Below are positions 3,894 through 39,147 of a stretch of DNA of 64,000 nt, in pieces. Source of the stretch: Gammaproteobacteria bacterium (GTDB lineage: Bacteria; Pseudomonadota; Gammaproteobacteria; Eutrophobiales; Eutrophobiaceae); assembly GCA_965198875.1 (NCBI GenBank), contig CBDAPU010000001.1:643146-707145 (forward strand), read 5' to 3'. Below the pieces are notes generated by a model. That model searched no databases. It was not told the DNA's origin and saw nothing but the letters and a program-made list of their open reading frames with translations. The number at the start of each line of letters is the position of its first letter. The first letter of the stretch is position 1. Position numbers and translations under genes: made by a program.

Positions 3894-3988
3894 CGATTAT
3901 CGAAGCGTTAGGTCTCTGGAATTAACCAAACCGAGCGTTACGCATAGTCTGTAGATATATAGTATTCAATTAAATACGATCATGCTCC

Positions 3989-17707: not shown

Positions 17708-18373
17708 ATGACAACACTGATGACAAGGTATGAAATCAATATAGAGATTGAAGGCACTCTGGCCATGTGGTCGCGGCCAGATACGGGGTCCAGCCCGACT
17801 TCTTACCCGATACCCACCTGGTCAGCCGCCAAAGGGCTGTTTGAATCCATCGCTTTTTTCAGGGATGGACGTGCCTGGATAAACCCGACCCGTGTTGAGG
17901 TATGCAAGGCGCGTGCTTCGGCAAGCAACGGCGGCATTCATTTTCAAAAATACATGACCAACTATCGCGGGCCACTTCGTGAACCCAGCCTGATCAAGAA
18001 AAAAGCAAATTATCAACAGGCGGCCCAGGTGGTTGCCAACCCCTGCTATCGGCTCTATGCCAATATCGAAAACGGTTCGGGCAAGCCGCCGCGCTCAGGG
18101 GATAATCCAGGCCATGCACTGCAAGCCATGTTTGCGCGGCGGCTTAAAAAAGGCCAGTGCCATCACACGCCATGCCTGGGCTGGAGCGAGTTTGTGCCCC
18201 GCTACTGGGGGCAAATACGAGAGTCCACAGAAGTGGACACAGGCGTGAATGTGAATCTGGTCTCTGTATTAAAAGGCGTGTTTGATACACCCCTTCAGGG
18301 GCAATTCAAGCCGACATTTCAGCACGGAGACAATGCCTGGATTAAAGAGGGAGTGTTCCACTATGCTCAATGA
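17708..18373 (+). CDS. cas5: orphan Cas5c (type I-C Cas5d-like pre-crRNA endonuclease)
   Basis: Alignable with the two other Cas5c paralogs in this window, both in the N-terminal region (SYPIPTWSAAKGLFESI) and the C-terminal region (KKGQCHHTPCLGWSEF). AAGGAGG lies directly upstream. Confidence 0.7.
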   Translation: MTTLMTRYEINIEIEGTLAMWSRPDTGSSPTSYPIPTWSAAKGLFESIAFFRDGRAWINPTRVEVCKARASASNGGIHFQKYMTNYRGPLREPSLIKKKANYQQAAQVVANPCYRLYANIENGSGKPPRSGDNPGHALQAMFARRLKKGQCHHTPCLGWSEFVPRYWGQIRESTEVDTGVNVNLVSVLKGVFDTPLQGQFKPTFQHGDNAWIKEGVFHYAQ

Positions 18374-18547
18374 ACTTATTCTGGTTCGCAATGGTTTGGC
18401 AGCGATTGATCCTGACCGACCGAGCCCCATCCACAAGGATCTTTCCGATCCGGGATGGTTGCCTTGGGACAATCTGAATAGCGCCTTTCTCAATGCACGC
18501 TCAGGGCGATATGATCAGATGAGTATTTATGTGGATTGCCAATGCTA
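18362..18547 (+). pseudogene. possible remnant of a cas8c N-terminus (speculative)
   Basis: 61-codon ORF MLNELILVRNGL... sits immediately after the orphan cas5c, where cas8c would lie. It has weak resemblance to the M-I/L-L-x-L-x-x-Y pattern at Cas8c N-termini. Confidence 0.15.
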
Positions 18548-18604
18548 AGGTGGCGGCATTTCTATCAATACCTGTCGCTTCAAACAGCTTTCAAAGGCTG
18601 AACT

Positions 18605-21061
18605 ATGAAAAACGGGTTTATTGCCCATAAAAGAAAAAACACGGATACAGACCAGTTGCTCTCTACCCACTTGACCGAAGTGGCTGAGCTGGCCGCTGGT
18701 TTTGCAGAAAAGCTCGGCCTGACCGATGCCGGACGTTTGCTGGGTTTACTGCATGACTTTGGTAAATACAGCCATGAATTTCAGAATTACATCCAGGCAG
18801 CCACTGGCGGTATGGATCAGGATGATGAAAACTGGGTGGATGCGGATTTATTAAAGGGTAAAATCGATCACTCCAGTGCCGGTGCACAATTTATATGGAA
18901 TCGATTTAGCGGTGCTGGCGCACATAATCAAGGTGATCTGGTTGGCCAGGTTTTGGCGCTGTGCATCGCCTCTCACCATAGCGGCCTGATTGATTGTTTT
19001 GACATCAACAACAAACCAAAATTTAAGCAGCGAATGGATAAGGCGGATGACCGAACCCATCTCAAAGAGTGCAAGCAAAATGCCGATAAAGTCCTATTCA
19101 ACCGCATTGAACACCTTGCAAGCGCTCAGTTATGCAGCGACACCTTTAAGCGTATGCGGTCGGTTTCTCAGGATAACCCCGCGAAATGGTCGAAAATCGA
19201 CTGGTTTCATTTAGGCTTTTTTACCCGCTTTCTGTTCAGCACACTGATTGACGCCGACCGGCTAAACAGCGCTGAATTCGAAACGCCGAGCCGTAAACAA
19301 GACCGTTGTGAACGTGAACGCTACTTTGATTGGAGCATCGCCCAGAGCAGAGTTGAAGGCTTTATCGGCGCACTCAAACCCAGCCATCCTATCGATGGAC
19401 TAAGGCGGGATATTTCTGATCAATGCCGCCAAAAAGCACAAGGCAGGCAAGGCATCTATACGCTGACCATACCCACCGGCGGCGGCAAGACCTATGCCAG
19501 CCTTCGTTATGCGCTGCATCATGCGGCACAGCACGGGCTCGATCGGATTATTTACATCCTGCCTTACACTTCGATTATTGAGCAGAATGCAAAAGAGGTC
19601 CGCAAGGCCATTGAACGAGAAGGCGATCGATTCCCCTGGGTGCTGGAACAACACTCCAACCTGGAGCCGGACCAGCAAACCTGGCAAAGCAAGCTAATTG
19701 CCGAGAACTGGGACAGCCCCATTGTGCTCACCACCATGGTGCAGTTTCTTGAAACCTGCTTTGCGGGCGGCACGCGCAGCGTTCGGCGATTGCACCAACT
19801 GGCAAATAGCATCATTATCTTTGATGATATTCAGACCCTGCCCATTAACTGCGTACACCTGTTTTGCAATGCACTGAATTTTTTATCCGCTCACTGTAGT
19901 ACAACCGCCCTGCTCTGCACGGCGACACAGCCACTGCTCAACGAGTTAAAAAATAAAGCCAAGGGAGCGCTCGAAATACCCGCTGAAAATGAGATTGCAA
20001 GCGACGTTGCCGACCTGTTCGAGAAGTTGCACAGGGTTGATGTTGACCCCCGGATAAAAACCAAAGGCTGGCAAGTGGAGGACGTGGGGGAGTTGGCACT
20101 TGAACAGTTTACAGAAACCCAAAGCTGTCTGGTGATTGTCAACACCAAAAGCTGGGCACAGGATTTATACCAAGCCTGCCAGGATGCTTTGCCGAAAGAC
20201 GCCCTGTTTCACCTCAGCACCCACCAGTGCCCGGCACACCGCAAACAATGGCTGGATAAAATCCGCCGGCGTCTACAACAAAAACAACCGGTGTTGTGTT
20301 TCAGCACCCAGTTGATCGAAGCCGGTGTGGATATCTCCTTTGCGCGAGTGATTCGCTTTCTGGCCGGGCTGGACTCCATCGCTCAGGCGGCAGGGCGATG
20401 TAACCGTCACGGTGAAGCCGAAAAAGGGCAGGTGTTGGTGATCAACCCGGCGGAAGAGACAACCGGACTGCTGAAAGAGATTGAAGCCGGGAAAGATGCG
20501 GCCCGGCGTGTATTGGATGAGGGCTTTGACAATCTGGTGGCGCCAGCGGCGATGCGCCAGTATTTTAAGTATTACTTCCACGAACGGGCGGACGACATGG
20601 ACTACCGGCTGGATACTGCAAAACTTGGCCGCTCTGACTCCTTACTGAACCTGCTTTCAGATAACCCAAAGTCACAAGCAACTTATGCGGATCGCTGGCA
20701 GCAACAAGGAAAAATCCCTCTATTGAGCCAATCCTTTATGGAAGCCGGCAAACAATTCAAGGCCATTGAGGCCCCTACTGAAGCCGTTATTGTGCCCTTT
20801 GGTGAGGGTAAAAACATCATCGCAGAATTATGTGCTGTGGATGCTGAGTTTGACGCTGAAAAATATTATGAGCTCCTTCGGCAGGCGCAAAGTTACAGCG
20901 TCAATGTGTTTCCCAATGTATGGAAAAAGCTGCGAGAAAATAATGCAACACATGAAATCCAGCCCGGTTTGGGCATTTACCATTTGAATGAACGTTATTA
21001 CAGCGCTGACTTCGGCCTGAGCGATCAGCCCGTTGCTTTGATGGAGAATTACAACCTATGA
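18605..21061 (+). CDS. cas3: Cas3 HD nuclease-helicase (module 1)
   Basis: HD motifs (LHDFGK, ASHHSGL), helicase motif I TIPTGGGKT, and motif VI QAAGRCNRHG. Confidence 0.9.
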   Translation: MKNGFIAHKRKNTDTDQLLSTHLTEVAELAAGFAEKLGLTDAGRLLGLLHDFGKYSHEFQNYIQAATGGMDQDDENWVDADLLKGKIDHSSAGAQFIWNRFSGAGAHNQGDLVGQVLALCIASHHSGLIDCFDINNKPKFKQRMDKADDRTHLKECKQNADKVLFNRIEHLASAQLCSDTFKRMRSVSQDNPAKWSKIDWFHLGFFTRFLFSTLIDADRLNSAEFETPSRKQDRCERERYFDWSIAQSRVEGFIGALKPSHPIDGLRRDISDQCRQKAQGRQGIYTLTIPTGGGKTYASLRYALHHAAQHGLDRIIYILPYTSIIEQNAKEVRKAIEREGDRFPWVLEQHSNLEPDQQTWQSKLIAENWDSPIVLTTMVQFLETCFAGGTRSVRRLHQLANSIIIFDDIQTLPINCVHLFCNALNFLSAHCSTTALLCTATQPLLNELKNKAKGALEIPAENEIASDVADLFEKLHRVDVDPRIKTKGWQVEDVGELALEQFTETQSCLVIVNTKSWAQDLYQACQDALPKDALFHLSTHQCPAHRKQWLDKIRRRLQQKQPVLCFSTQLIEAGVDISFARVIRFLAGLDSIAQAAGRCNRHGEAEKGQVLVINPAEETTGLLKEIEAGKDAARRVLDEGFDNLVAPAAMRQYFKYYFHERADDMDYRLDTAKLGRSDSLLNLLSDNPKSQATYADRWQQQGKIPLLSQSFMEAGKQFKAIEAPTEAVIVPFGEGKNIIAELCAVDAEFDAEKYYELLRQAQSYSVNVFPNVWKKLRENNATHEIQPGLGIYHLNERYYSADFGLSDQPVALMENYNL

Positions 21062-21777
21062 ATGATCTCACACCTAAAAACACCATCAGCTTCAAACTAT
21101 CGGGGCGCTATGCCTTGTTCACTGACCCCGTCACCCGAATTGGCGGCGAGAAATGCAGCTACCATCTCCCCACCTATGAAGCCTTAAAGGGCATTCTTAA
21201 ATCCATTTACTGGAAGCCGACGCTGATCTGGGTGGTCGACAAAGTGCGGGTGATAAAACCGATTCGCACCCAGACCAAAGGCACCAAGCCTCTGGTTTGG
21301 CAAGGCGGTAACAGCCTCGCCATTTACACCTTTCTGCATGAAGTGGAATACCAGGTGCAGGCGCATTTTGTCTGGAATGAACATCGTCCTGAACTGGCAG
21401 CAGACCGCATCGACGGCAAACATTACAACATTGCCAAACGTATGTTGGAGAAAGGCGGCAGGCAGGATATTTTTCTCGGCACCCGTGATTGTCAGGGCTA
21501 TGTTGAACCCTGCCAGTTCGACGAGGGTACAGGTGCCTACGATGATCTGGGTGAACTGAGTTTTGGTTTGATGTTTCACAGCTTCGACTACCCCGATGAA
21601 ACCGGCGTGAATGAACTGCACAGTAATTTCTGGCGGGCACGCATGTGCAAGGGGACTGTCGATTTTCCACTGCCGGCGGACTGCGACCACAAGCGACCTG
21701 TCCGCAAGATGGAACCGAAACCCTTTGCATTAAACAAAAACCTGAAAAATGTTGCACAGCAGGAGACTGAATTATGA
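21058..21777 (+). CDS. cas5: Cas5c (module 1)
   Basis: Cas5d-family N-terminus (YHLPTYEALKGILKSIYWKP). Its start overlaps the cas3 stop (ATGA). Confidence 0.85.
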   Translation: MNDLTPKNTISFKLSGRYALFTDPVTRIGGEKCSYHLPTYEALKGILKSIYWKPTLIWVVDKVRVIKPIRTQTKGTKPLVWQGGNSLAIYTFLHEVEYQVQAHFVWNEHRPELAADRIDGKHYNIAKRMLEKGGRQDIFLGTRDCQGYVEPCQFDEGTGAYDDLGELSFGLMFHSFDYPDETGVNELHSNFWRARMCKGTVDFPLPADCDHKRPVRKMEPKPFALNKNLKNVAQQETEL

Positions 21778-23822
21778 GTTGGATGGCAACGCTGTATAAA
21801 ACCTATGAGCAGGCGCTGGAGCTGGACTTGCCGGAAGATGAAAAATTGATGCCAATCAGCCACACCAGGCAAAATGCTCATATTAACGTTGTGCTAGATC
21901 AGAGCGCAAGTTTTGTTAGGGCAAAAGTATTGTTCAAACACCCTGTTGTGGTTCCCGCAACCGAAGACTCTGCAAGTCGAACAGGAAAGAAGCCACCTCC
22001 GCACCCTCTTCACGACAAAATTCAATATATTGCTGGTGATTACGCAGCATTTGGGGGTAAGAAACCGCCATTTTACGATGACTATATAGAGTTGCTTAGA
22101 AACTGGTGTAATTCGGATTATAGTGATGAACTAATAGAGATTGTTCTTAATTATGTTGAAAAAGGTCGGCTGGTTTTTGATTTAATAGACGTAGGAATTT
22201 TGGCTTGCGATGAAAAAGGCAAGTTGATTACACCTGAAAAAATCGATCAGGTTAAAGAAAAATATCCTATCTTTAAATCAATACCGAAAGACCAACAAAA
22301 AGGCTACTTTGATCAGGGGGTTGCTGTTGTTTGCTGGTCAGTTGAAATTCCTGGTCGCCCTGGGAGTGACATTTGGAAAGAGCGCGTTATATCTAAAAAG
22401 TGGGTTGAGTATGACGCTTCCACTGCTGGTTTAGAAGGGGTCTGTTCAATAACTGGCGATTTCGGACCGATCAGTTTAAAGCACCCCTCAAAAATAATTC
22501 CTTCAGTACCAGGAGCAAAGCTTTTGTCGAGTGATGACATTAATGGTTTCACTTATAGGGGAAGATTTACCGATACAAAAATATCAAAAAAAGAAACTGG
22601 ACTTCAAGCATGTAATGTTGGCTTTTTAACCAGTCAAAAAGCGCACAACGCCCTGCGTTGGCTCATTGGTGAGCGCAAGCAGGTTTATCGCAATGGTGAT
22701 CAGGTTGTTGTGATCTGGGCCATTTCAGGCAAGGAAACACCCTCAGCATTTGCCGAGCTTCCCTTATCCTTTGATGAACCCTTTGAACTGAATGATGCAG
22801 GCATCACCGACAACACGAACCTGGACGCCAAGCCCGATATCTCGGTTGGGCTGGGTCAGCAGCACGGCATTGCCTTACAGCGCTATATGAAAGGCTACTA
22901 CCAGGATTTTAAAGACACGCCGACCGAAAGCATCGTCGTCATGGGCCTCGATTCCGCCACACCCGGACGCATGGCGATTACCTACTATCGGGATTTTATG
23001 GCGATGGATTATCTCGATATGACCAACCGCTGGTATCAACACCTTGTCTGGTTCCAGCGGGTTGTTAAAGAATATATCAACTCAAAAGGGAAAAAATATA
23101 CAAAGGTACGCTGGTGGCCGGGAACGCCCACACCCTGGGCTATCATGAATTGTTGTTATGGCGACATTATTAAAAGCAATGAATCACTCAAGAAACAAGT
23201 CACCGAGCGACTGCTGCCCTGTATCGTTGAGAACAAACCCATCCCTGAAGACCTGCTGCGCCTGGCCGCTCGCCGTGCCAGCAACCCGAACAGTGGGGAA
23301 CAATGGGAATGGGAAAGAAACCTGGGCGTGGCCTGTGCGCTTTACCGAGGCTTTCACCACCCCGACAGACAACCCAACCCAACTCAACAGAGGAACTACG
23401 ATATGGCCCTGGATTTAGAAAACACCTCAAGAGACTACCTGTTTGGCCGCCTGCTGGCCATTGCCGATAAAATTGAACGGGTTGCGCTAAGTTTGCGCGA
23501 TGAAAACAGACCCACGGCGTCGCAGCGGCTGATGCAGCGCTTTGCCGACCGGCCAAGCTCCACTTGGGAGAATATCGATAAACAACTGACACCCTACAGG
23601 CTACAGTTGCAAGTGTCTCGAACGGGCTTTTTAGTCAATAGAGAGAAAGAACTGGATGCGGTAACCGACTTATTTCGACCCGATGACTTTACCCGTGACG
23701 CCCCCCTAAGCGCTGAATACCTGCTGGGCTTTCACAGCCAACGTCTCGCGTTACGACCATCCGAGCAACAAGACGACAAACCAACTGACCAATCCACCGA
23801 CTCATCAACCCAGGAGGACTAA
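21774..23822 (+). CDS. cas8c: Cas8c large subunit (module 1)
   Basis: 682-aa protein between cas5c and cas7. Its C-terminal MALDLENT...GRLLAIADKIE helical region is shared with the second paralog. Confidence 0.8.
   Translation: MSWMATLYKTYEQALELDLPEDEKLMPISHTRQNAHINVVLDQSASFVRAKVLFKHPVVVPATEDSASRTGKKPPPHPLHDKIQYIAGDYAAFGGKKPPFYDDYIELLRNWCNSDYSDELIEIVLNYVEKGRLVFDLIDVGILACDEKGKLITPEKIDQVKEKYPIFKSIPKDQQKGYFDQGVAVVCWSVEIPGRPGSDIWKERVISKKWVEYDASTAGLEGVCSITGDFGPISLKHPSKIIPSVPGAKLLSSDDINGFTYRGRFTDTKISKKETGLQACNVGFLTSQKAHNALRWLIGERKQVYRNGDQVVVIWAISGKETPSAFAELPLSFDEPFELNDAGITDNTNLDAKPDISVGLGQQHGIALQRYMKGYYQDFKDTPTESIVVMGLDSATPGRMAITYYRDFMAMDYLDMTNRWYQHLVWFQRVVKEYINSKGKKYTKVRWWPGTPTPWAIMNCCYGDIIKSNESLKKQVTERLLPCIVENKPIPEDLLRLAARRASNPNSGEQWEWERNLGVACALYRGFHHPDRQPNPTQQRNYDMALDLENTSRDYLFGRLLAIADKIERVALSLRDENRPTASQRLMQRFADRPSSTWENIDKQLTPYRLQLQVSRTGFLVNREKELDAVTDLFRPDDFTRDAPLSAEYLLGFHSQRLALRPSEQQDDKPTDQSTDSSTQED
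23403..23822 (+). CDS. cas11: candidate nested cas11c (small subunit), translated from an internal in-frame start of cas8c
   Basis: Internal ATG with a GAGGA sequence 8 nt upstream. The MALDL(E/N)NT start is conserved in both cas8c paralogs. This is inferred from published type I-C biology. Confidence 0.35.
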   Translation: MALDLENTSRDYLFGRLLAIADKIERVALSLRDENRPTASQRLMQRFADRPSSTWENIDKQLTPYRLQLQVSRTGFLVNREKELDAVTDLFRPDDFTRDAPLSAEYLLGFHSQRLALRPSEQQDDKPTDQSTDSSTQED

Positions 23823-23825
23823 ACC

Positions 23826-24749
23826 ATGAGCCTGAACCATAAAATAGACTTTGCCATTATCTTAAACGTGACTAATGCCAACCCCAATGGCGACCCGCTG
23901 AGCGACAATCGCCCCAGAACCGACTACGACGGTTACGGCGAAATATCCGATGTCTGCCTGAAGCGCAAACTGCGCGACCGACTGCAAGAGCAGGGGCAGG
24001 CAATATTCGTGCAATCGGATGAAAAGAAAACGGACGGCATGACCAGCCTGCAAAATCGTGCCTACTCAGATGAATTTGGTTTGGGTAAAGACACCTTTAA
24101 TTCGAGGAAAACCAGCCCGGATGACACAGCGCGAAAAGCCTGTGATAAATGGTTCGATGTCAGAGCCTTTGGGCAATTATTTGCGTGGGGTAAGGAAAAA
24201 GGCAACTCAGCTTCAGGTGTCTCAATACCCATTAGAGGGCCAGTGACCATTCAATCGGCATTCAGCACTGTGCCAATTAGTATCACCAGTTCTCAGATTA
24301 CAAAAAGTGTCAATGCACAAGAGCCCAAGAATAAAAAAAGCGCAAATACAGAAGAGTCCGATGAAAATGGAAACAGTGATATGAGCTCAGATCGAATGGG
24401 TATGAAACACCGGGTTGATAAGGCCGTTTATGTCGCCTATGGCGCAATGACGCCGCAACTGGCGAAAAAAACCCACTTTAGCGATACCGATGCAGACCGC
24501 ATCAAGGCGTTATTACCCAGACTATTTGAAGGCGATGCCTCCTCGGCCCGACCTGAAGGCTCCATGAGCGTGGACAAGCTGATCTGGTGGCAACACAACT
24601 GCAAATCCGGCCAGTACTCATCCGCAAAGGTACATAATACCTTGAAGGAACACATCAAAGCCAAAGGACGGTTAGACACATCCAGCCTGAAACAGGCACT
24701 CAGCGACAAGTTCAGTGATTTATCCCCTGAAATCATAGAAGGCTTTTGA
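23826..24749 (+). CDS. cas7: Cas7c (Csd2) backbone protein (module 1)
   Basis: N-terminus NANPNGDP...DVCLKRKLRD is typical of Csd2. Confidence 0.85.
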   Translation: MSLNHKIDFAIILNVTNANPNGDPLSDNRPRTDYDGYGEISDVCLKRKLRDRLQEQGQAIFVQSDEKKTDGMTSLQNRAYSDEFGLGKDTFNSRKTSPDDTARKACDKWFDVRAFGQLFAWGKEKGNSASGVSIPIRGPVTIQSAFSTVPISITSSQITKSVNAQEPKNKKSANTEESDENGNSDMSSDRMGMKHRVDKAVYVAYGAMTPQLAKKTHFSDTDADRIKALLPRLFEGDASSARPEGSMSVDKLIWWQHNCKSGQYSSAKVHNTLKEHIKAKGRLDTSSLKQALSDKFSDLSPEIIEGF

Positions 24750-24897
24750 TCTATAGTGTGATACCAGTCCTTTCCGGATAAATGAGCAGGGCTAAATCGC
24801 CTGATAGAATCGATAAACACAATGGTCAAGGCAGCAAACAGGATGGGGTAATGAATGCGATGAGGCGTCAACCTATAATGCCGCTTATGCACAGATT

Positions 24898-27207: not shown

Positions 27208-27428
27208 AAAACCATTGTTTCAATCCACATTCTGATGAACGAATTATTGATATTAACAATCCATTGAAATCGGATTCTATTGTGTAACCCATATCGCAAT
27301 GTTCATTTTCGAAAAATCTGTTTTGAAATGGTTCGCCTTTGTATTGAGAAAATGATGGCGCTGTTGATATCGATCCTGCGACACTTTACGCCTATGCCCA
27401 ACATCATCAAGAAAGGAAATAACACAAC

Positions 27429-28166
27429 ATGCCCAGCGAAGAACAATTTTGCCTGGAAGTCAGCGGCGACTTCGCCTGTTTTACCCGCCCGGAAATGAAG
27501 GTGGAGCGGGTGTCCTATGACGTGATAACGCCATCGGCGGCGCGGGGCATTTTTGAGGCCATTCTCTGGAAGCCCGCCATCCGCTGGCAGGTCGAGAAAA
27601 TTGAGGTGCTGAAACCCATCAAATGGGTCAGCATACGGCGCAATGAAATCGATTCGGTTTTAGCTGAGAGTAATATCAAAAAAGCGATGAAGGGCGGCGC
27701 TATGCCCGCCTTGTATATCGACGAAATTAAGCCAGATGGAAAACTGAAACATAGACAGCAACGCGCCGGTTTGTTTTTGCGCGACTTGGCCTATCGGCTT
27801 TATGCCCGTTTTCAGCTTCAGGATGACAGCGCTCATCAGCATCGTTTTCCACACCTGCACTGTGACGATGCGCCTTGTGAAAACAGCTATCCCAAGTTTG
27901 CCGACATGTTCAAGCGCCGTGCCCGCAAGGGTCAGTGTTTTAACCAGCCCTACCTGGGCACCCGGGAGTTTTCCGCCAGCTTCCGCTATATCGAGCCAGG
28001 CCATACAACGGAGGCACCTATCAAAGAAGACCGCGACCTGAGCTGGATGCTGTATGACATGGATTACAACAAGCCCGAAGACCCGCAACCCCTGTTTTTC
28101 AATGCCGTAATGGAAAATGGCATCGTCCGGGTTCCCGACAGAGAAAGCGGCGAGGTACGGGGATGA
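27429..28166 (+). CDS. cas5: Cas5c (module 2)
   Basis: YDVITPSAARGIFEAILWKP and KGQCFNQPYLGTREF are Cas5d-family motifs. Confidence 0.85.
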   Translation: MPSEEQFCLEVSGDFACFTRPEMKVERVSYDVITPSAARGIFEAILWKPAIRWQVEKIEVLKPIKWVSIRRNEIDSVLAESNIKKAMKGGAMPALYIDEIKPDGKLKHRQQRAGLFLRDLAYRLYARFQLQDDSAHQHRFPHLHCDDAPCENSYPKFADMFKRRARKGQCFNQPYLGTREFSASFRYIEPGHTTEAPIKEDRDLSWMLYDMDYNKPEDPQPLFFNAVMENGIVRVPDRESGEVRG

Positions 28167-29947
28167 TTTTACAATCACTGGTGGAATACTATGAGCGCAA
28201 CAAAACAAATCTTCCCAAGTTTGGGTTTTCGGATGTAGAAATTCCGTATTTAATTGTAATTGATCAGAACGGAAAGTTTATTGCCTTGCAAAGCACCAAG
28301 GAAAAGCAAGGCAAAAAAGAAAAAGCTCAAACTTATACGGTTCCCAGCCTGCCAAAAACGAGGAAAGCCAGTGTTGATATTGTGTCTCAAGGAAAAACGG
28401 CCGGAGTTTGCTGGGATCATTTTGGCTACCTTACCGGTCAGGCTAAACTGGACAAGAAATCTAATTCATACCTTCCAAAAGATATTGAATTAGCCGAAGC
28501 GCAAATGCAGGGTTTTAAATGCAAAATCGCAATGCTAAAAGAAGCACTGCCGAGTGTGGTTGAGCTAGAGGCGATACAGAAGTTTTATCTAAACGATGAG
28601 AACATGGAACAGTTGCGCGCTTCTGAAGAGTGGCCAAATTTAATAAAAAAAGATGGGCAATCCGTAGCATTTCGGTTAGCGGGCTCTGACCGATTGGCAT
28701 GTCAATCTGAAGAAGTTATTAACTATCTGCTTTCAAATATGGAGGAAGAAGAGGATGGTTTCTGCTTGGTAAAGGGCATTGAGTCTGAAATAGCCAGAAC
28801 ACATGAAGCAATCAAGTATATTGGCGGAACTAACCCTAAACTTGTTTCGTTTAATGAAAAGGCGTTCGAGTCCTATGGAAAAAAACAAAGTTTCAACTCA
28901 CCAATAAGTGCGCGCGCATCGTTTGAATACAGTACGGCACTAAACCATATGCTCAAGGACACCTCTCAAAACAAATTTAAAGTAGCGAGCAACGAATTTG
29001 TCTGCTGGTCGGAGCGTGGTTCAGCGTTGGAAGAATGGATGCCCGTCTTTATGAGTACAGATGACACCGAAGCAGGTATCAATGCCGTGGAAGGCTTGTT
29101 TGACAGCATCCACAATGGAGCCTATCAAAAGCCCGATGGCAAGGACCGCTTTTACTTGCTGGGGCTGGCCCCCAATTCTGCCCGCATCATGGTGCGCTTC
29201 TGGCAGGTGGGAACCGTTGCCCAGTTCTCTGAAAATATCGCCAAATGGTTTAAAGATATTGAGATTGATGGCGTGGAAAAATTTGGTTATCCACCACTCA
29301 AAGAATTGCTCAGCTCAACAGCACTGCAAGGCGAGGACGACAAAGTGCCGCCCAACCTGCCTGGCGCGGTAGTAACGGCCATCCTCAACGGCACACCTTT
29401 GCCTGATAGCTTAATGCAAGGGGTTATTCGTCGCATAAAAGCCGAGGCCGCCGTAAAGAAAGACAAAAAGACCAATAAACCGGTAGAGAATGTTTCACCC
29501 AACCGCGCCGCCTTGATCAAGGCGTGTTTGAACCGCCAGATTCGTCAATCACAACTATCATTAACGGAGCTTGCTATGGCACTTGATTTGAACAACACCG
29601 ATACCTCCTATGTGCTCGGCCGATGGTTCGCCACCCTGGAAAAAATACAGGAAGAATCACACCCGGGCATCAATGCAACCATTAAAGACCGCTATTACGG
29701 CGCGATCAGCAGCAATCCGGTCAACGTGTTTGGCATTCTTGATCGGCTCAAGAATCATCATTTAGCCAAACTTGAAAAAGGTCAACGCATCAACAAGGAA
29801 AGGCTGCTGGGCGAGATTGTCGGCAAGCTGCCTGCCCGGCTGCCCAATCGGCTGTCGTTATCGGAACAAGGCAGTTTTGCGGTTGGCTACTACCACCAGC
29901 GCCAGCACCTCTACCCCCAAGAAAAATCTGACCAGCCAACTTCTTAA
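28163..29947 (+). CDS. cas8c: Cas8c large subunit (module 2)
   Basis: 594-aa protein in the canonical position, with a C-terminal MALDLNNT...GRWFATLEKIQ region. Confidence 0.8.
   Translation: MILQSLVEYYERNKTNLPKFGFSDVEIPYLIVIDQNGKFIALQSTKEKQGKKEKAQTYTVPSLPKTRKASVDIVSQGKTAGVCWDHFGYLTGQAKLDKKSNSYLPKDIELAEAQMQGFKCKIAMLKEALPSVVELEAIQKFYLNDENMEQLRASEEWPNLIKKDGQSVAFRLAGSDRLACQSEEVINYLLSNMEEEEDGFCLVKGIESEIARTHEAIKYIGGTNPKLVSFNEKAFESYGKKQSFNSPISARASFEYSTALNHMLKDTSQNKFKVASNEFVCWSERGSALEEWMPVFMSTDDTEAGINAVEGLFDSIHNGAYQKPDGKDRFYLLGLAPNSARIMVRFWQVGTVAQFSENIAKWFKDIEIDGVEKFGYPPLKELLSSTALQGEDDKVPPNLPGAVVTAILNGTPLPDSLMQGVIRRIKAEAAVKKDKKTNKPVENVSPNRAALIKACLNRQIRQSQLSLTELAMALDLNNTDTSYVLGRWFATLEKIQEESHPGINATIKDRYYGAISSNPVNVFGILDRLKNHHLAKLEKGQRINKERLLGEIVGKLPARLPNRLSLSEQGSFAVGYYHQRQHLYPQEKSDQPTS
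29576..29947 (+). CDS. cas11: candidate nested cas11c (module 2)
   Basis: Internal in-frame ATG at 29576 with GGAG 8 nt upstream, encoding a 123-aa C-terminal helical domain. Confidence 0.35.
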   Translation: MALDLNNTDTSYVLGRWFATLEKIQEESHPGINATIKDRYYGAISSNPVNVFGILDRLKNHHLAKLEKGQRINKERLLGEIVGKLPARLPNRLSLSEQGSFAVGYYHQRQHLYPQEKSDQPTS

Positions 29948-29960
29948 ATCACCTACCTGA

Positions 29961-30833
29961 ATGAGGAGAAAAAACATGAGCCTGAATAACCGCTACGATT
30001 TTGTGTATCTGTTTGATGTCAAAGACGGCAACCCCAACGGCGACCCGGATGCGGGCAATATGCCGCGTGTCGACCCGGAAACCGGGCAGGGGTTAGTAAC
30101 TGATGTCTGCCTGAAACGCAAGGTGCGTAACTTTGTGGAAATGACCCAGGCGGACACGCCGAGACACAATATTTTTATTCGGGAGAAAGCCGTTCTTAAT
30201 AATCTGATTGCGGAGGCACACGAGCAGGAAGACGTTAAAGACAAGGAAAAAGGCGCGAGAACTGCCGCTGCGAGAGACTGGATGTGCGAGCAGTATTATG
30301 ACATTCGAGCCTTTGGCGCGGTCATGAGTACGGGAGTGAATGCCGGGCAGGTGCGCGGCCCCATCCAAATCACCTTCTCGCGCTCCATTGATCCCATCTT
30401 TGCCCAGGAGCATTCCATCACCCGCATGGCCGTTGCAACTGAGGCGGAAGCAGAAAAACAATCCGGGGACAATCGCACCATGGGACGCAAGGCAACCGTG
30501 CCCTATGGCCTGTATCGCTGCCACGGGTTTATTTCAGCACACCTGGCCGCCCAAACTGGCTTTGACGATGATGATTTAACATTATTCTGGCAGGCGTTAG
30601 GCAATATGTTTGATCACGACCGCTCCGCCGCACGCGGCGAAATGACCGCTCGCGGTCTCTATGTTTTCAAGCACGACAGCAAGCTGGGCAATGCCCAGGC
30701 CCACGCCCTTTTTGACCGCATCACAGTTTCCAGAGTAGCAGACGAAGCGCCCCGAGCGTTTACCGACTACCGGATTTCCGTCAACGAAGATGATATGCCC
30801 GCAGGCGTCCAACTGATCACTGAGTTCGCATAG
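29961..30833 (+). CDS. cas7: Cas7c (Csd2) (module 2); probable start at 29976
   Basis: MSLNNRYDF...GNPNGDP...[10 protein letters not shown]. Confidence 0.85.
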
Positions 30834-30983
30834 CCTAGGGAGCCTCTGATTAATGTCTGCGAGGCAGTTAGTGCAAGGCAAAAATCAGCGAAAAAGCGCA
30901 GTTTATAGGCCATAAATGAGCATTTTGAGCTGATTTTTAACGCAGCAATAACAACGTAGGTAATTAATCAGAGGTTCCCTAGG
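30834..30983. repeat. MITE-like element: 21-bp inverted repeats (20 of 21 match) at 30834-30854 and 30963-30983 flanking a 108-bp core, between cas7 and cas4
   Basis: CCTAGGGAGCCTCTGATTAAT on one side and ATTAATCAGAGGTTCCCTAGG on the other, read directly from the sequence. Confidence 0.5.
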
Positions 30984-31003
30984 TTAAGTATTGATCACCC
31001 GAA

Positions 31004-31666
31004 ATGCCGCCCGCCTCAGGGAAAAACAACCGCTGGTTTAGCGATAAGGATGATATGGACGACTACCTGCCCCTCTCCGCCCTGCAACACTGCGCCTATT
31101 GCCCGCGCCAGTTTGCGCTGATCCATGTTGAACGGGCCTGGGCGGAAAACCGCTTCACCGCCGAGGGACGTATTCTGCACGAGCGGGTGGATTCGGGCGG
31201 GCGGGAACAGCGCGGCACCTTGCGTTACGAGCGCAGTGTCCAGTTGGTTTCCGAGCGCTATCGCATCCAGGGCAAAATGGACTTGCTGGAAATCGAGTGC
31301 ACCGAGCCGCCGCGTTATTTCCCCGTTGAATACAAACGCGGCAAGCCCAAGCTGGAAGACTGGGACAAAATACAACTCTGCGCCCAGGCGCTCTGTATTG
31401 AGGAGATGAAAAACACGCAGGTGACGGAAGGCGCTATCTGGTACTGGCAGGTGCGGCGGCGCGAGGCCGTGGCGCTGGACGACAGCCTTCGACAGGCCAC
31501 GCTCAGCACCATCGAACAAGCCGCCAAGATCCTCGCCAGTGGCCGCACCCCGCCACCCATCAACAACAAGAAACTGTGTCGCGCCTGCTCCCTGGTCGAC
31601 CTCTGCCAGCCACACGCCTTCCGGCAGGACTGGTCGGCGCGCTATATGGCGCAGTTGGGCGAATGA
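31004..31666 (+). CDS. cas4: Cas4 RecB-like nuclease with Fe-S cluster (possible start at 31055)
   Basis: N-terminal Cys (HCAYCPRQF) and the C-terminal CRACSLVDLC cluster cysteines. Confidence 0.85.
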   Translation: MPPASGKNNRWFSDKDDMDDYLPLSALQHCAYCPRQFALIHVERAWAENRFTAEGRILHERVDSGGREQRGTLRYERSVQLVSERYRIQGKMDLLEIECTEPPRYFPVEYKRGKPKLEDWDKIQLCAQALCIEEMKNTQVTEGAIWYWQVRRREAVALDDSLRQATLSTIEQAAKILASGRTPPPINNKKLCRACSLVDLCQPHAFRQDWSARYMAQLGE

Positions 31667-32679
31667 AAAAACTGCTCAATACCCTCTACATCACCCGCCA
31701 GGAAAGCTATCTGCACAAGGAGCGGGAAACCATCGTCATCAAACAGGGCGATGAAAAACTGGGACAGTTTCCGGCGATCAATATCGCCAATATTCTCTGC
31801 TTTGGCCAGGTCTCGGTATCGCCGTTTTTAATGGGCTACTGTGCCGAAAACAACATCGGCCTGAGCTTTTATACCGAATATGGCCGTTATCTGGCCCGCG
31901 TGGCAGGCAAACCGGTGGGCAATGTGTTGTTGCGAAGAGCGCAGTATCGCTGGGCGGATAATGAGGCGCAGTGCAATGCCATTGCCCGCCTGATGGTTGC
32001 GGCAAAAATCGCCAACAGTCGCCAGGTGCTGCAACGGGAAATACGCAACCACGGACAGAACCCGAGCCTGACCGAGGCCATCGACAAACTTTCCGTCAGT
32101 TGCCGCTGGGCCAAACAGGCCGGACGTGTCGACGAAGCCCGAGGTATGGAAGGCGAAGCGGCGGCGGTGTATTTCGGCGTCTTTCACGAACTGGTGCGCA
32201 GGCCGGAATTTACCTTTGCCGGTCGGGTTCGTCGCCCGCCGACGGACCCGGTCAATGCCCTGCTGTCGTTCACTTACTCACTGATCACGCAAGAATGCAT
32301 CTCCGCACTGGTCGGTGTCGGGCTCGACCCCTACGTCGGCTTTCTCCACAAAGACCGCCCCGGGCGGGCCAGCCTGGCGCTGGATTTACTGGAGGAGTTC
32401 AGAGCACCCTGGGCGGATCGTTTTGTACTGACGCTGATCAACCGCAACCAACTGGCTTTACAGGATTTTGTCACCGAAGCGGGCGGCGCGGTGCGTCTCG
32501 CTGATGAGGCCAGAAAGCAATTTCTCGCCGCCTACCAGGAGCGCAAGCAGGTGGAGATCATGCACCCTTACTTAAAAGAGTCGATTGCCGTCGGCTTGTT
32601 GCCGCATTGTCAGGCGATGCTGTTAGCGCGACACATTCGCGGCGATACAGCATACTACCCACCCTTTCTGGCCAAATGA
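31663..32679 (+). CDS. cas1: Cas1 integrase (the ORF-track start at 31576 is probably too long)
   Basis: MKKLLNTLYITRQESYL is a typical Cas1 N-terminus. ATGA overlap with the cas4 stop. Confidence 0.9.
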   Translation: MKKLLNTLYITRQESYLHKERETIVIKQGDEKLGQFPAINIANILCFGQVSVSPFLMGYCAENNIGLSFYTEYGRYLARVAGKPVGNVLLRRAQYRWADNEAQCNAIARLMVAAKIANSRQVLQREIRNHGQNPSLTEAIDKLSVSCRWAKQAGRVDEARGMEGEAAAVYFGVFHELVRRPEFTFAGRVRRPPTDPVNALLSFTYSLITQECISALVGVGLDPYVGFLHKDRPGRASLALDLLEEFRAPWADRFVLTLINRNQLALQDFVTEAGGAVRLADEARKQFLAAYQERKQVEIMHPYLKESIAVGLLPHCQAMLLARHIRGDTAYYPPFLAK

Positions 32680-32972
32680 TGCTGGTTCTGGTCACCTATG
32701 ACGTCAGTGTGATTTCTGCAGGCGGGCAGCGGCGCCTTCGGAACATTGCCAAAGTATGCCTTGACTATGGCGTGCGCGTGCAGAACTCCGTCTTCGAATG
32801 CGAAGTGGAACCGGCGCAGTTCACCGCCTTCAAAGCTGAACTGGAAGCGCTGTATAATCCGGCGGAGGACAGCCTGCGCTTTTATTTTTTGGGCAAAAAC
32901 GGCAGACAACGAGTCGAACACCTGGGCGCCAAAGCCGTCGCTGATCCCCTGCGGGACAAACTGATTCTGTAA
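32676..32972 (+). CDS. cas2: Cas2
   Basis: MMLVLVTYDVS is a typical Cas2 start. ATGA overlap with the cas1 stop. Confidence 0.85.
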   Translation: MMLVLVTYDVSVISAGGQRRLRNIAKVCLDYGVRVQNSVFECEVEPAQFTAFKAELEALYNPAEDSLRFYFLGKNGRQRVEHLGAKAVADPLRDKLIL

Positions 32973-33149
32973 GCGCTAACCTGTGGTGCTCAAGGGTTAA
33001 TAGGGTGGTTAGCGGAGCTGTAAGTATCTGTTCTTTAAAAAAATATTTGCATGACGGCTGAGTAGCGTCTCTTTCTAGTCGACGTTGGCCATCATGTTAG
33101 CGGACAAGTTGGAATTTGCTTAAAGAAATTATTGTGTTATGTTCACGCG
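32973..33149 (+). promoter_or_regulatory. CRISPR leader (AT-rich)
   Basis: AT-rich 177-bp region between cas2 and the first repeat. Repeat orientation, with GAAAC at the 3' end, fits + strand transcription. Confidence 0.5.
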
Positions 33150-34667
33150 GTCGCGCCCCTCGCGGGCGCGTGGATTGAAACGGATTGATTAAAGAATGGT
33201 GGGGGGGCATAGACTGTCGCGCCCCTCGCGGGCGCGTGGATTGAAACTTAGACAAGATCACAAACCCAACACCAATCGGCGGTCGCGCCCCTCGCGGGCG
33301 CGTGGATTGAAACCCCATCCACCTGCACCACCAGAATTGCCTAAATGAGTCGCGCCCCTCGCGGGCGCGTGGATTGAAACCCCCAGTCAAGGCTATTTGC
33401 ATGACTGGATAACCGTCGCGCCCCTCGCGGGCGCGTGGATTGAAACAGATTAAAAGTTTCGGCGACAGATCCGGGCTGGAGTCGCGCCCCTCGCGGGCGC
33501 GTGGATTGAAACTGATCGTGAGCAAAAGGATATGCCTGAAATCATCGTCGCGCCCCTCGCGGGCGCGTGGATTGAAACCTGCAAAACATTTAATGGCTTA
33601 TATGCTGATAGGCTGTCGCGCCCCTCGCGGGCGCGTGGATTGAAACTTATCTCCTCTTGGTTAATGTTTATTTTCTTCGGTCGCGCCCCTCGCGGGCGCG
33701 TGGATTGAAACATCCTTGTTTATGATTTCAGGAACCCATTCTGAAAGTCGCGCCCCTCGCGGGCGCGTGGATTGAAACAATAAGAGTTATGGCGCAGTCT
33801 GGCATCGGTTTAAGTCGCGCCCCTCGCGGGCGCGTGGATTGAAACCGTCACTACAGGCGTTAATGACTTTCTGCAACTAGTCGCGCCCCTCGCGGGCGCG
33901 TGGATTGAAACAATCGTGCGCTTCATGGACGGCCATAATCTCGACGGTCGCGCCCCTCGCGGGCGCGTGGATTGAAACCCCCAGTCAAGGCTATTTGCAT
34001 GACTGGATAACCGTCGCGCCCCTCGCGGGCGCGTGGATTGAAACCATCAAGGCAACTGGGAGTTATTGCGGGCAACGGGTCGCGCCCCTCGCGGGCGCGT
34101 GGATTGAAACGCTATCCGAGCAGGCCATAAATCCTAAGAGCAAAGTCGCGCCCCTCGCGGGCGCGTGGATTGAAACAATCCAGTTGTCAATCGACCTGTC
34201 GCAGAAAACCGTCGCGCCCCTCGCGGGCGCGTGGATTGAAACAGGGAAGGATCGCTGGCTAAACACTTGAAGAGAAGTCGCGCCCCTCGCGGGCGCGTGG
34301 ATTGAAACACTTTTGATCAGTTTTAAAACAAAAAAAAGCAGTGTCGCGCCCCTCGCGGGCGCGTGGATTGAAACAATCGTGCGCTTCATGGACGGCCATA
34401 ATCTCGACGGTCGCGCCCCTCGCGGGCGCGTGGATTGAAACCCTCGCGGGCGCGTGGATTGAAACAATCGCCCTTAATTCAACTGTTCTCAACATATCTA
34501 TAGGTCGCGCCCCTCGCGGGCGCGTGGATTGAAACTTAACACTAACCTTATGAGCAGGTCGCCGCAGTCGTCGCGCCCCTCGCGGGCGCGTGGATTGAAA
34601 CTGCTCTCGGACTCTCAATCTGTCAACATCCTCCTGTCGCGCCCCTCGCGGGCGCGTGGATTGAAAC
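33150..34667 (+). CRISPR. Type I-C CRISPR array: 23 copies of the 32-bp repeat GTCGCGCCCCTCGCGGGCGCGTGGATTGAAAC plus one 24-nt truncated repeat
   Basis: Repeats begin at 33150, 33216, 33282, 33349, 33415, 33481, 33547, 33615, 33680, 33747, 33814, 33880, 33947, 34013, 34079, 34145, 34211, 34277, 34343, 34410, 34504, 34570 and 34636. The partial repeat is at 34442-34465. Spacers are 33-38 bp. Spacer 4 equals spacer 13, and spacer 12 equals spacer 19. Confidence 0.97.
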
Positions 34668-38666: not shown

Positions 38667-39147
38667 ATGCCTGGATGTCGCAAGCCGTCCTCGGTGCTTG
38701 CCTCGTCAGTCTTCTATAACCTATCAAACCACCTCTCCACGGGTAGGCGAACAGGACGGTGAGGGTGTTGTTGTCGGCGCCGACCCGCCTCGCATCTCAC
38801 CATCATGGCCTGACGGCATACTCTCCCCCGCCCCGTCGGCGGTATGAAACAAGGGGCGGATAAAAACCCGCCGGTAGCCCCAGGGGATCTTATCAAGGCG
38901 CACTGGATTGGCCATCCTCCGATCAACATCAAAGGTAGGATTGAAAACACAGGCAAGCGGATCCCGGCTACAGGGGCAAACCGGATCTCGCCGGCGGATA
39001 AAGACTGGCGGCCACCCCGTAGCCAGGGGATTTCAGCTACCCGTTTCATGGGCTTTAATCGGTCAATCTCTGATCCGATATGTGATACATTATTTCCCCG
39101 AGAATGATCCGACATTCCCCGGCAAACAATCGCATGAACCTGATCGA

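Follow-up and report, generated by a model that had tools for sequence, protein, structure and literature searches.

Type I-C systems and complex CRISPR-Cas loci

Type I-C CRISPR-Cas systems have 5'-TTC as their hallmark PAM and a 32-nt hairpin repeat that yields an 11-nt 5' handle. In the canonical version (Dvulg), as seen in D. vulgaris and N. lactamica, the genes are arranged in the order cas3-cas5c-cas8c-cas7-cas4-cas1-cas2 and are accompanied by an array. Previous studies have described the catalytic triad of Cas5, Y46/K116/H117 (PMC5965381), and the small subunit Cas11c, which is produced by internal initiation within cas8c (PMC7684278). Complex loci with several interference modules carry one cas1 in 86% of cases and identical repeats in 56%; the cases described bring together distinct subtypes, for the most part I-B and type III, and so different mechanisms, and most type I subtypes except I-B and I-A rarely co-locate with another system (Bernheim et al. 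2020, PMC7145637).

The locus considered here occupies positions 17708-34667 of a 64-kb stretch of gammaproteobacterial DNA (64,000 nucleotides, hereafter the window), where a lone cas5-like gene, cas5x, is followed on the + strand by two effector modules, M1 (cas3-cas5c-cas8c-cas7) and M2 (cas3-cas5c-cas8c-cas7-cas4-cas1-cas2), and then by a CRISPR array (Table 1). Like the complex loci of Bernheim et al. 2020, it combines two complete effector sets with one cas1, one cas2 and one array, all within 17 kb; unlike them, all its modules score as I-C and have the same mechanism. It is a real, unusual same-subtype composite locus and a rare variant of the known composite immune loci. The reading we favor, at a probability of roughly 0.6, is that a canonical system, M2, is preceded by an effector-only module, M1, that a further module, M0, stood first in the ancestor, and that the Cascades would share one array and one adaptation unit. 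The literature searched contains no description of tandem I-C modules, with a coverage that is incomplete and an earlier description being possible.

Organization and gene content of the locus

An earlier note made on this DNA had described the above gene order, with a second cas3-cas5c-cas8c-cas7 set upstream in the same orientation, having neither cas4-cas1-cas2 nor an array of its own, and with the canonical I-C operon occurring once only. The ORFs, all on the + strand, were located at the coordinates that it gave: M2 is complete, M1 comprises effector genes only, and the sizes proposed for Cas3 (818 and 769 aa) and Cas8c (682 and 594 aa) are right. Its count of one adaptation module and one array also stood, as the window contains a single cas4-cas1-cas2 and no further array was found in its 64 kb.

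Table 1. Coordinates of the features of the locus in the window
Feature	Position	Strand	Remarks
cas5x, intact 221-aa ORF	17708..18373	+	lone Cas5 of I-C-variant module M0
M0 cas8 stub, first ~31 codons	18363..18455	+	ends at deletion junction
cas3 (M1), 818 aa	18605..21061	+	HD nuclease and SF2 helicase
cas5c (M1), 239 aa	21058..21777	+	TIGR01876 245 bits; B. halodurans Cas5d-like pre-crRNA endoribonuclease
cas8c (M1), 682 aa	21774..23822	+	TIGR01863 309 bits
cas7 (M1), 307 aa	23826..24749	+	TIGR02589 (Cas7/Csd2) 296 bits
cas3 (M2), 769 aa	24898..27207	+	Cas3 HD and core models passed
cas5c (M2), 245 aa	27429..28166	+	TIGR01876 207 bits; D. vulgaris/N. lactamica-like
cas8c (M2), 594 aa	28163..29947	+	TIGR01863 468 bits
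cas7 (M2), 290 aa	29961..30833	+	TIGR02589 399 bits
MITE-like insertion	30831..30986		24-nt terminal inverted repeats; between cas7 (M2) and cas4
cas4, 203 aa	31055..31666	+	TIGR00372 134 bits; start picked from orthologs
cas1, 338 aa, I-C type	31663..32679	+	TIGR03640 (I-C Cas1c model) 497 bits
cas2, 97 aa	32679..32972	+	TIGR01573 62 bits
AT-rich leader	32973..33149	+	homologous to L085 leader
CRISPR array	33150..34667	+	23 identical 32-nt repeats and one truncated repeat

The M1 proteins are genuine Cas proteins, with Cas5c, Cas8c and Cas7 scoring above the NCBIfam type I-C cut-offs (85 bits for TIGR01876, 219 bits for TIGR01863 and 182 bits for TIGR02589) and Cas3 passing both the Cas3 HD model (103 bits) and the Cas3 core model (133 bits). 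Both modules encode the signature large subunit Cas8c/Csd1 (Pfam PF09709, 362 bits in M1 and 516 bits in M2), along with the Csd2-family Cas7 and the fused HD-helicase Cas3 by which type I-C is recognized. Type I-C is further marked by Cas5c (Cas5d) as its sole RAMP nuclease, in keeping with which the long + strand ORFs between 17.7 and 33.0 kb are all assigned to other cas families, leaving no candidate for cas6. The full order through cas2 with an adjacent array is seen in M2, whereas M1 stops at cas7 and would at best draw on the array and adaptation genes of M2. M2 thereby matches the canonical I-C order of D. vulgaris and N. lactamica, but differs from it in having other I-C effector modules upstream, in the 222 nt that separate cas3 from cas5 and in the MITE-like insertion between cas7 and cas4. 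The insertion is confined to the window, the same site being empty in the related loci L003, L004 and L085, whose cas4 orthologs are likewise 203 aa long; a related copy of the element lies elsewhere on the contig of a relative. An Rfam scan of the window at gathering thresholds gave no match and tRNA genes were not found in it; scans for promoters and terminators returned site counts no higher than in shuffled sequence and are uninformative on transcription units.

Two diverged effector lineages

Pairwise comparison of M1 and M2 gave protein identities of 33% for Cas3, 26% for Cas5 and 31% for Cas7, with BLASTP aligning just the C-terminal ~130 aa of the two Cas8c proteins (26% identity); at the DNA level, similarity is limited to two short patches of 72-84% identity. 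The earlier suggestion of two deeply diverged I-C effector sets, as opposed to a recent duplication, is upheld by these values, which come from the very alignment of paralogs that had been proposed as a check and are far from near-identity. They also bear on the alternative that the tandem is an artefact of assembly, whether through the collapse or duplication of a repeat or through the chimeric joining of two strains; all that speaks for it is the general possibility that attends metagenome-derived genomes. An assembly duplication is contradicted because the M1 and M2 proteins are only 26-33% identical; further, the same gene order is present on three independent contigs, with 93-97% DNA identity that runs unbroken across the module junctions. 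By these comparisons an artefact of either kind is effectively refuted, its probability being negligible.

Matches to proteins of known structure assign the modules to different I-C lineages. M1 belongs to the Bacillus halodurans-like lineage: its Cas5c matches PDB 4f3m (BH0337, the Cas5d of that type) at 298 bits and retains the Y46/K116/H117 triad within the conserved motifs SIYWKPT and GKH. A sequence search of the PDB with M1 Cas8c returned no match. Both its order, cas3-cas5-cas8c-cas7, and its protein families are those of 80 stand-alone loci of the B. halodurans lineage, unlike which it lacks its own cas4-cas1-cas2 and array. M2 in turn is of the D. vulgaris/N. lactamica-like lineage, with its Cas5c matching the Cas5c chains of PDB 7kha/8dex at 195 bits and its Cas8c that of N. 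lactamica (8g9u) at 405 bits; it also shares with these systems a C-terminal Cas11c region with an internal Met, residues 474-587 of its Cas8c matching separate Cas11 chains in the PDB. Additionally, the window repeat ends in ATTGAAAC, as in the canonical D. vulgaris and N. lactamica systems. Production of Cas11c is predicted for both cas8c genes, each of which keeps an in-frame Met (MALDL) behind a Shine-Dalgarno-like motif: in M1 at 23403 (139 aa, with the ATG preceded by AGAGGA) and in M2 at 29576 (123 aa, with the ATG preceded by GGAG). The adaptation module is closest to those of M2-type loci: Cas1 shares 85% identity with its counterpart in L088, a stand-alone M2-type locus, and no more than 77% with those of M1-type loci.

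Remnant of a third module

The earlier note had counted three Cas5c genes. The copies in M1 and M2 are confirmed as such; the first gene is not, since its product reaches 38 bits with the I-C Cas5c model (TIGR01876), under the cut-off of 85, and 65 bits with the PADLOC Cas5c model. The family to which it belongs has 411 members, and genes of this type head a cas5-cas8-cas7-cas3 operon in all four contexts examined. Its product is 63% identical to the Cas5 of Paraneptunicella aestuarii (CP074570), which represents an I-C variant with the order cas5-cas8-cas7-cas3-cas4-cas1-cas2, a Cas8 of the profile PDLC01562 and a repeat of the same family as that of the window. Unlike this variant, the window has just the cas5 and a 31-codon cas8 stub, while L002, a 95%-identical relative, has the module, i.e., M0 (cas5-cas8-cas7-cas3), still whole. 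The M0 Cas8 matches the catalogued I-C Cas8c profile PDLC01562 at 414 bits, and the translated stub in the window aligns with it by BLASTP over 31 aa at 80% identity.

Relative to L002, 5.4 kb are missing from the window, comprising the remainder of cas8 together with cas7 and cas3: window positions 17718-18455 align with L002 10119-10844, and 18451-21899 with L002 16262-19710. The deletion junction (18451-18455) consists of a 5-nt microhomology, CGGGA, and the same junction is found in L003. Comparison of these loci thus shows the lone cas5 to be a remnant of a third, I-C-variant module, M0, and not an extra Cas5c. Because the window and L089 each have an APH-family gene upstream, M0 was considered as the original resident of the chromosomal site; the idea was dropped, as no similarity could be detected between the two APH genes.

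Recurrence among relatives and rarity elsewhere

The M0-M1-M2 stack with its adaptation genes recurs on three related contigs of one metagenome, the array being seen in one of them. Four related loci show different states: a full triple stack, the deletion of M0, IS insertions and swapped sub-genic segments. L003 has both modules and cas4-cas1-cas2 but no array beside cas2.

To place the stack in a wider setting, 80 M1-type loci were collected with an alignment query over species-representative genomes, where a single M1 Cas8c protein query had found none. Of the 65 M1-type loci whose sequence continues beyond cas7, 64 have cas4 next, and one other effector-only case, L007, was seen. Another module upstream was found in none of the 47 M1-type loci with at least 6 kb of upstream sequence, nor was another module present in any of 80 M2-type loci. 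Two loci, L056 and L064, were considered as tandem candidates and set aside, their extra Cas3-like ORF being a ~230-aa piece that directly abuts cas3 and most likely stems from a cas3 that was split or frameshifted. The stack is lineage-specific within the samples and absent from the 80 M1-type and 80 M2-type loci surveyed elsewhere.

A single array

The array is built on the 32-nt repeat GTCGCGCCCCTCGCGGGCGCGTGGATTGAAAC, with the truncated repeat (24 nt) at 34442-34465; its spacers are 33-36 nt long and, with two being duplicated, the 22 spacer intervals hold 20 distinct sequences. The repeat is identical at 32/32 positions to those of four stand-alone M2-type loci and matches the repeats of stand-alone M1-type and M0-type loci at 31/32 and 30/32 positions, respectively, while the 11-nt handle UGGAUUGAAAC is identical in stand-alone loci of all three lineages. 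Sharing of crRNAs between the modules via one array is plausible because stand-alone systems of all three lineages use nearly the same repeat. The presumption of the earlier note that the two effectors draw on the same crRNAs is strengthened in this way, short of proof.

Although the leaders of the window and L085 are homologous, the two arrays have no spacer in common, which suggests that spacers may have turned over since these loci diverged. No protospacer was found for the 20 distinct spacers among 50,697 phage records, for three 24-nt spacer seeds in IMG/VR, or for the 22 array intervals in the window and the fetched loci.

Selection, segment exchange and a Walker-B substitution

Both modules are under purifying selection, with dN/dS of 0.21-0.35 in M1 and 0.22-0.37 in M2 (e.g., 0.29 for M1 cas3, 0.26 for M1 cas7 and 0.22 for M2 cas3), values which, for recombinant genes, partly reflect selection on alleles before their arrival at the locus. 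The deficit of nonsynonymous changes has a binomial P of ~1e-6 or smaller in the five M1 and M2 genes tested. Further, both modules are mosaic through recombination, with segments of saturated dS having been swapped in Cas8c, Cas7 and Cas3 of the two modules. The N-terminal part of M1 Cas8c (aa ~61-300) is hypervariable among the relatives, with dS saturated over aa 61-300 against L003 and L085 and the remaining gene 85-100% identical; the M2 Cas3 allele is just 42% identical to the allele in the same position of L085.

The HD and helicase motifs of M1 Cas3 are present, with one deviation at the catalytic Glu of Walker-B, where the codon at 19826-19828 (GAT) specifies E408D and turns motif II into FDDIQ. 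The form FDEIQ is found in every M1-type Cas3 ortholog displayed or tallied (66 aligned), close relatives included, and position 408 is Glu in all four sequences of the relatives; the substitution is private to the window genome. Motif II of M2 Cas3 reads LDEAQ, and all its other motifs are present. E408D may impair the M1 Cas3 helicase, and M1 could be non-functional in this strain.

This observation supports the possibility that M1 is a redundant passenger heading for loss like M0, with the stack having arisen neutrally through the insertion of cassettes at a defense locus prone to recombination and M2 alone providing immunity here. The lack of adaptation genes in M1 is in keeping with such a view, as is the deletion of M0, which fits a stochastic decay of redundant modules. 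Further, L004 has IS1595 insertions and split cas ORFs, M1 cas3 is split in L002 and L085, and, among 448 columns with a conservation of at least 97% in distant orthologs, the M1 proteins show 10 deviations, the median for those orthologs being 0 per protein. However, the split ORFs of the relatives may reflect sequencing errors, given that their assemblies are built from long reads at 7-12x, and in the conserved columns M2 Cas8c deviates as often as M1 Cas8c (4/105 versus 4/101). Moreover, the four M1 ORFs are all intact with overlapping start and stop codons, their nonsynonymous deficit is pronounced (P ~1e-6 to 1e-10), the Cas5 catalytic motifs and the internal start of Cas11c are retained, and M1 has taken part in allele swapping as M2 has. 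On balance, we regard the passenger scenario as rather improbable.

Likewise, the position of E408D in Cas3 helicase motif II could be taken to mean that M1 was re-purposed, as the earlier note had proposed, such that its Cascade with a crippled Cas3 would act as an RNA-guided repressor or priming sensor; alternatively or in addition, Cas5x would serve as an extra pre-crRNA processing enzyme. The former finds no specific support; the relatives lack the substitution, which is therefore not a feature of the architecture, and Cas3 has kept its HD nuclease motifs intact. In the M2 cas3-cas5 gap (27217-27228), 12 nt on the minus strand do replicate the 3' end of the repeat, and type I loci are known to encode regulatory cr-like RNAs; the regulatory mini-arrays among them are stand-alone repeat-like sequences conserved in close loci, usually as two repeats around a spacer (Shmakov et al. 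2023; PMC10120712). However, L003 matches the 12-mer at only 10/12 positions, a second repeat at the spacing of an array is lacking, and the 12-mer was rejected as a candidate of this kind. With respect to Cas5x, its gene is intact, retains all 49 family-invariant residues and, between the window and L003, the two genomes sharing the deletion, shows a dN/dS of 0.37 with a nonsynonymous deficit (P=0.013), but this is weak evidence drawn from 31 substitutions in total. We accordingly consider re-purposing of M1, Cas5x or both to be very unlikely.

Proposed functional model and implications

Under the favored reading of a composite locus with shared crRNAs, the single array would be transcribed from the leader beside cas2, and either Cas5c would cut the pre-crRNA at the base of the repeat hairpin to leave the common handle UGGAUUGAAAC. 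The resulting pool of crRNAs would then load two distinct Cascades, each consisting of Cas5c, Cas7, Cas8c and the internally translated Cas11c and each recruiting its own co-evolved Cas3, with new spacers being supplied by the one Cas4-Cas1-Cas2 unit; in this genome, M1 may be weakened by Cas3 E408D. The likely benefit would be redundancy against anti-CRISPR proteins, itself a hypothetical rationale, or a broader PAM tolerance.

In type I-C, the N-terminus of Cas8c is responsible for PAM recognition and is targeted by both AcrIC4 and AcrIF2 (bioRxiv 10.1101/2022.06.15.496202), and AcrIC8 and AcrIC9 also block PAM recognition. The M1 and M2 paralogs are probably too diverged to share the Cas8c PAM-recognition surfaces bound by known I-C anti-CRISPRs. 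One could speculate, as a tentative extension that we hold to be less probable than its negation, that two or three deeply diverged effector modules of a single subtype have been stacked on one array and one adaptation unit as a selected strategy against anti-CRISPRs, kept up by frequent sub-genic exchange in Cas8c (in the region binding PAM and Acr proteins), Cas11c, Cas7 and Cas3, such that one spacer repertoire would be read by effectors that no single I-C anti-CRISPR blocks; the orphaned Cas5x may then be kept as an extra crRNA-processing enzyme.

Composite loci have so far mostly paired different types, e.g., type I with type III, with two mechanisms reading one spacer memory, whereas here all partners are of type I-C and differ in lineage only. 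Taken together, the four related loci give an uncommon insight into the gain, shuffling and loss of effector modules. Provided that M1 and M2 are both active, the locus would be a natural test of whether intra-subtype redundancy confers protection from anti-CRISPRs or a wider PAM tolerance, and of the extent to which the Cas5c, Cascade and Cas3 of distant I-C lineages can share crRNAs without problems of cross-assembly, a question that bears on I-C systems as compact genome-editing tools.

Two divergent type I-C effector sets

ORF calling recovered, on the + strand of 17708-34667, every ORF listed in an earlier note on this DNA, with no non-cas gene in between. NCBIfam and Pfam models assigned two complete effector sets to type I-C at scores over the curated cut-offs: an upstream module, cas3-cas5c-cas8c-cas7 (M1), and a downstream one of the same gene order (M2), the cas7 of which is followed by cas4, cas1 (497 bits on the I-C Cas1c model) and cas2. 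The proteins of the two modules share 33% (Cas3), 26% (Cas5) and 31% (Cas7) identity, and Cas8c is alignable only over the C-terminal ~130 residues, at 26%. This pairwise alignment, which the earlier note had called for, bears out its claim of two strongly diverged I-C effector sets as opposed to a recent duplication; an assembly duplication is excluded by identities as low as 26-33%.

Features of the stacked I-C locus and blocks exchanged between it and its relatives
Feature	Position	Strand	Detail
cas3 M1	18605-21061	+	NCBIfam/Pfam
cas5c M1	21058-21777	+	245 bits, cut-off 85
cas8c M1	21774-23822	+	309 bits, cut-off 219
cas7 M1	23826-24749	+	296 bits, cut-off 182
cas3 M2	24898-27207	+	NCBIfam/Pfam
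cas5c M2	27429-28166	+	207 bits, cut-off 85
cas8c M2	28163-29947	+	468 bits, cut-off 219
cas7 M2	29961-30833	+	399 bits, cut-off 182
CRISPR array	33150-34667	+	23 identical 32-nt repeats GTCGCGCCCCTCGCGGGCGCGTGGATTGAAAC; one truncated repeat; two duplicated spacers
Swapped block, Cas8c-M1	aa ~61-300		window unlike all three relatives
Swapped block, Cas8c-M2	aa 1-420		window vs L085
Swapped block, Cas8c-M2	Cas11c region		window vs L003
Swapped block, both Cas7 proteins	parts
Swapped block, cas3-M2	entire		42% protein identity vs L085; similarly divergent allele in L004

Database matches place M2 in the structurally studied I-C lineage: its Cas8c matches the Neisseria lactamica Cas8 at 405 bits and the Desulfovibrio vulgaris Cas8c at 254 bits, with residues 474-587 aligning to separately deposited Cas11 chains, and its Cas5c scores 195 bits against that of D. 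vulgaris. M1 belongs to the Bacillus halodurans lineage: its Cas5c matches BH0337 (4f3m) at 298 bits and retains the SIYWKPT and GKH motifs, which carry the Y46/K116/H117 catalytic triad of Cas5c (PMC5965381); for Cas8c of M1, sequence search detected no PDB relative. Both cas8c genes contain an internal in-frame Met (MALDL...; 23403 in M1 and 29576 in M2) preceded by a Shine-Dalgarno-like motif, and translation of the I-C small subunit, Cas11c, begins at such an internal site within cas8c (PMC7684278). Since these starts are kept in both genes, each module encodes all the components that a minimal I-C Cascade is known to require, along with its own Cas3.

A lost third module and the related loci

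The stacked I-C locus is real, and was found on three related metagenome contigs (L002/L085, L003 and L004), all from one ENA sample; these were assembled from long reads at 7-12x, so that ORF splits in them may reflect errors. The layout of L003 matches that of the window. L002/L085 (~95% identity with the window) carries a further module, cas5-cas8-cas7-cas3 (M0), immediately 5' of M1, followed by M2, cas4-cas1-cas2 and a 37-repeat array, and L004 has M0, an IS1595 element, M1, and then M2 with a second IS1595 within cas8c. Homology between the window and its relatives begins at the start codon of the lone first cas5 (cas5x, 17708-18373) and stops with the array, the flanks being unlike on both sides.

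Alignment shows that positions 10844-16262 of L002 are missing from the window, where the deletion junction (18451-18455) lies in a 5-nt microhomology, CGGGA, and the M0 cas8 is cut down to 31 codons; the junction in L003 is identical. The stack is therefore ancestrally triple (M0-M1-M2). Hence, while the interpretation in the earlier note was essentially right, it missed the third module, of which the first cas5, scoring 38 bits against the I-C model for Cas5c (cut-off 85), is the stump. The cas5x family comprises 411 proteins and is the first gene of its operon in all four contexts examined; the stand-alone order cas5-cas8-cas7-cas3-cas4-cas1-cas2 occurs in three loci, namely that of Paraneptunicella aestuarii (L001), L089 and L090/L091, and the fourth context is the M0 of L002, which leads into M1. 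As the M0-lineage Cas8 matches the catalogued I-C Cas8c profile PDLC01562 over its full length (414 bits), M0 is a known, divergent I-C variant. The cas5x ORF is intact, keeps 49/49 family-invariant residues, and shows a dN/dS of 0.37 with a modest nonsynonymous deficit (P=0.013) between the window and L003, both of which bear the deletion. It is either recently orphaned or still useful, and the data fit both.

Immediately after the stop codon of the M2 cas7 sits a MITE-like element of 156 bp (30831-30986), bounded by 24-nt terminal inverted repeats; it is missing from the corresponding site in L003, L004 and L085, and L002 has a longer related copy at 3860-4070. In L003 (21107-22028), cas2 is the last gene of the dual-module locus, with no leader or array in the 22 kb fetched, and a large helicase-like gene lies on the opposite strand 110 nt past it.

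One array and one adaptation module

Repeat searches found no other array in the 64-kb window, which, together with the single cas4-cas1-cas2, agrees with the earlier claim of one adaptation module and one array. A 177-nt leader separates cas2 from the array. Two spacers are duplicated (33381-33414 = 33979-34012; 33912-33946 = 34375-34409), and a truncated repeat at 34442-34465, the last 24 nt of the repeat, lies flush against the preceding full repeat; together these point to rearrangement of the array by internal recombination. The leader is conserved between the window and L085 and no spacer is common to them, which suggests that spacers have turned over since the two diverged.

The repeat is identical (32/32) to that of four stand-alone M2-type loci. 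Three stand-alone M1-type loci have a repeat with one loop base changed, and the repeats of M0-type loci differ from it at two bases. The 11-nt handle TGGATTGAAAC is present in 36/47 M1-type, 24/36 M2-type and 4/4 M0-type arrays. The adaptation genes of the window are closest to those of a stand-alone M2-type locus (Cas1 85%, against at most 77% for M1-type and 55-73% for M0-type loci), which fits M2, cas4-cas1-cas2 and the array being the canonical unit, with M1 and M0 as effector-only additions.

In M2, cas3 and cas5c are 222 nt apart, and this gap contains, on the minus strand (27217-27228), an exact 12-nt copy of the repeat 3' end, GTGGATTGAAAC (the crRNA handle), for which chance alone predicts ~0.008 exact copies across the entire window (128,000 positions / 4^12). 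Only 10/12 positions match in L003, and no partner repeat accompanies the 12-mer, which may be left over from a former array end or may have arisen by chance. A small ORF occupies this gap in relatives whose cas3-M2 allele is different (L085 9075-9299, 74 aa, with a weak DUF2442 match; L004 15290-15481, 63 aa), and the window has none.

Beyond the array lie an 845-aa repeat protein (34623-37160, - strand) weakly matching a calcium-binding-repeat family, whose longest ORF overlaps the last CRISPR repeat, so that its real start must be further inside; a Sir2-family protein 4 kb away from the array (38908-39984, +; PF02146, E=6e-44); and a 1010-aa response-regulator/EAL protein (40220-43252, +) whose two domains are separated by a long region encoded by imperfect tandem repeats of 18-60 nt (41.1-42.3 kb), in which GCC, GAG and AAA codons abound.

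Rarity of the arrangement

Among 80 species-representative loci with an M1-type Cas8c, cas4 follows cas7 in 64 of the 65 that reach at least 1.5 kb beyond cas7, the exception being an effector-only locus (L007), and none of the 47 with at least 6 kb of upstream sequence has a second module upstream of cas3. Similarly, no second Cas7/Cas8 or any M0/M1 gene was found in 80 metagenomic M2-type loci, about 15 of which have 10 kb upstream. L007 (OX638335.1) carries cas3-cas5-cas8c-cas7 without cas4-cas1-cas2 for 10 kb downstream; in another effector-only I-C locus (L086, CP032507.1), transposase genes follow cas7, with no cas4-cas1-cas2 in the 10 kb fetched. Bernheim et al. described complex loci combining one adaptation module with several interference modules, chiefly I-B together with type III, and noted that for most of the remaining type I subtypes sharing a locus with another system is rare (PMC7145637). 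The present locus resembles these in being composite with shared adaptation; however, its modules are all I-C. No description of tandem I-C modules was found in the literature searched, the coverage of which is incomplete.

Mosaic exchange of effector segments

Loci that share 93-97% identity along most of their extent contain blocks of saturated synonymous divergence (see the table), which are replacements by divergent alleles rather than faster point change. In the D. vulgaris Cascade, the Cas8c N-terminus is the PAM reader and the site of AcrIC4 and AcrIF2 action (bioRxiv 10.1101/2022.06.15.496202), and in N. lactamica AcrIC8 and AcrIC9 also act by blocking PAM recognition. We infer that the exchanged N-terminal part of Cas8c-M1 would be the equivalent of the D. 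vulgaris PAM-reading domain.

Constraint and probable joint activity

When the window is compared with L003, the M1 genes have dN/dS values of 0.21-0.35 and the M2 genes values of 0.22-0.37, with a nonsynonymous deficit in 5/5 M1 and M2 genes tested (binomial test, P ~1e-6 or smaller), although for recombinant genes such values partly record the history of alleles before their arrival at this locus. Constraint was also checked at columns at least 97% conserved among distant orthologs, where M1 deviates at 3/157 (Cas3), 1/80 (Cas5), 4/105 (Cas8c) and 2/106 (Cas7) and Cas8c of M2 at 4/101. The two modules look equally constrained, with the exception of one Cas3-M1 residue: at 19826-19828 the window has GAT (Asp), as against GAG (Glu) in L002, L003, L004 and L085, at the Walker-B (motif II) catalytic position, where aligned distant orthologs give FDEIQ. 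In SF2 helicases, Asp in place of the Walker-B catalytic Glu may lower ATPase activity; the ATPase of Cas3-M1 may likewise be lower. The main rival explanation, under which M1 would be a passenger undergoing decay in this genome, is less probable. The best-supported reading of the sequence data, at a probability of roughly 0.6, is that M1 and M2 would be jointly active on one crRNA pool.
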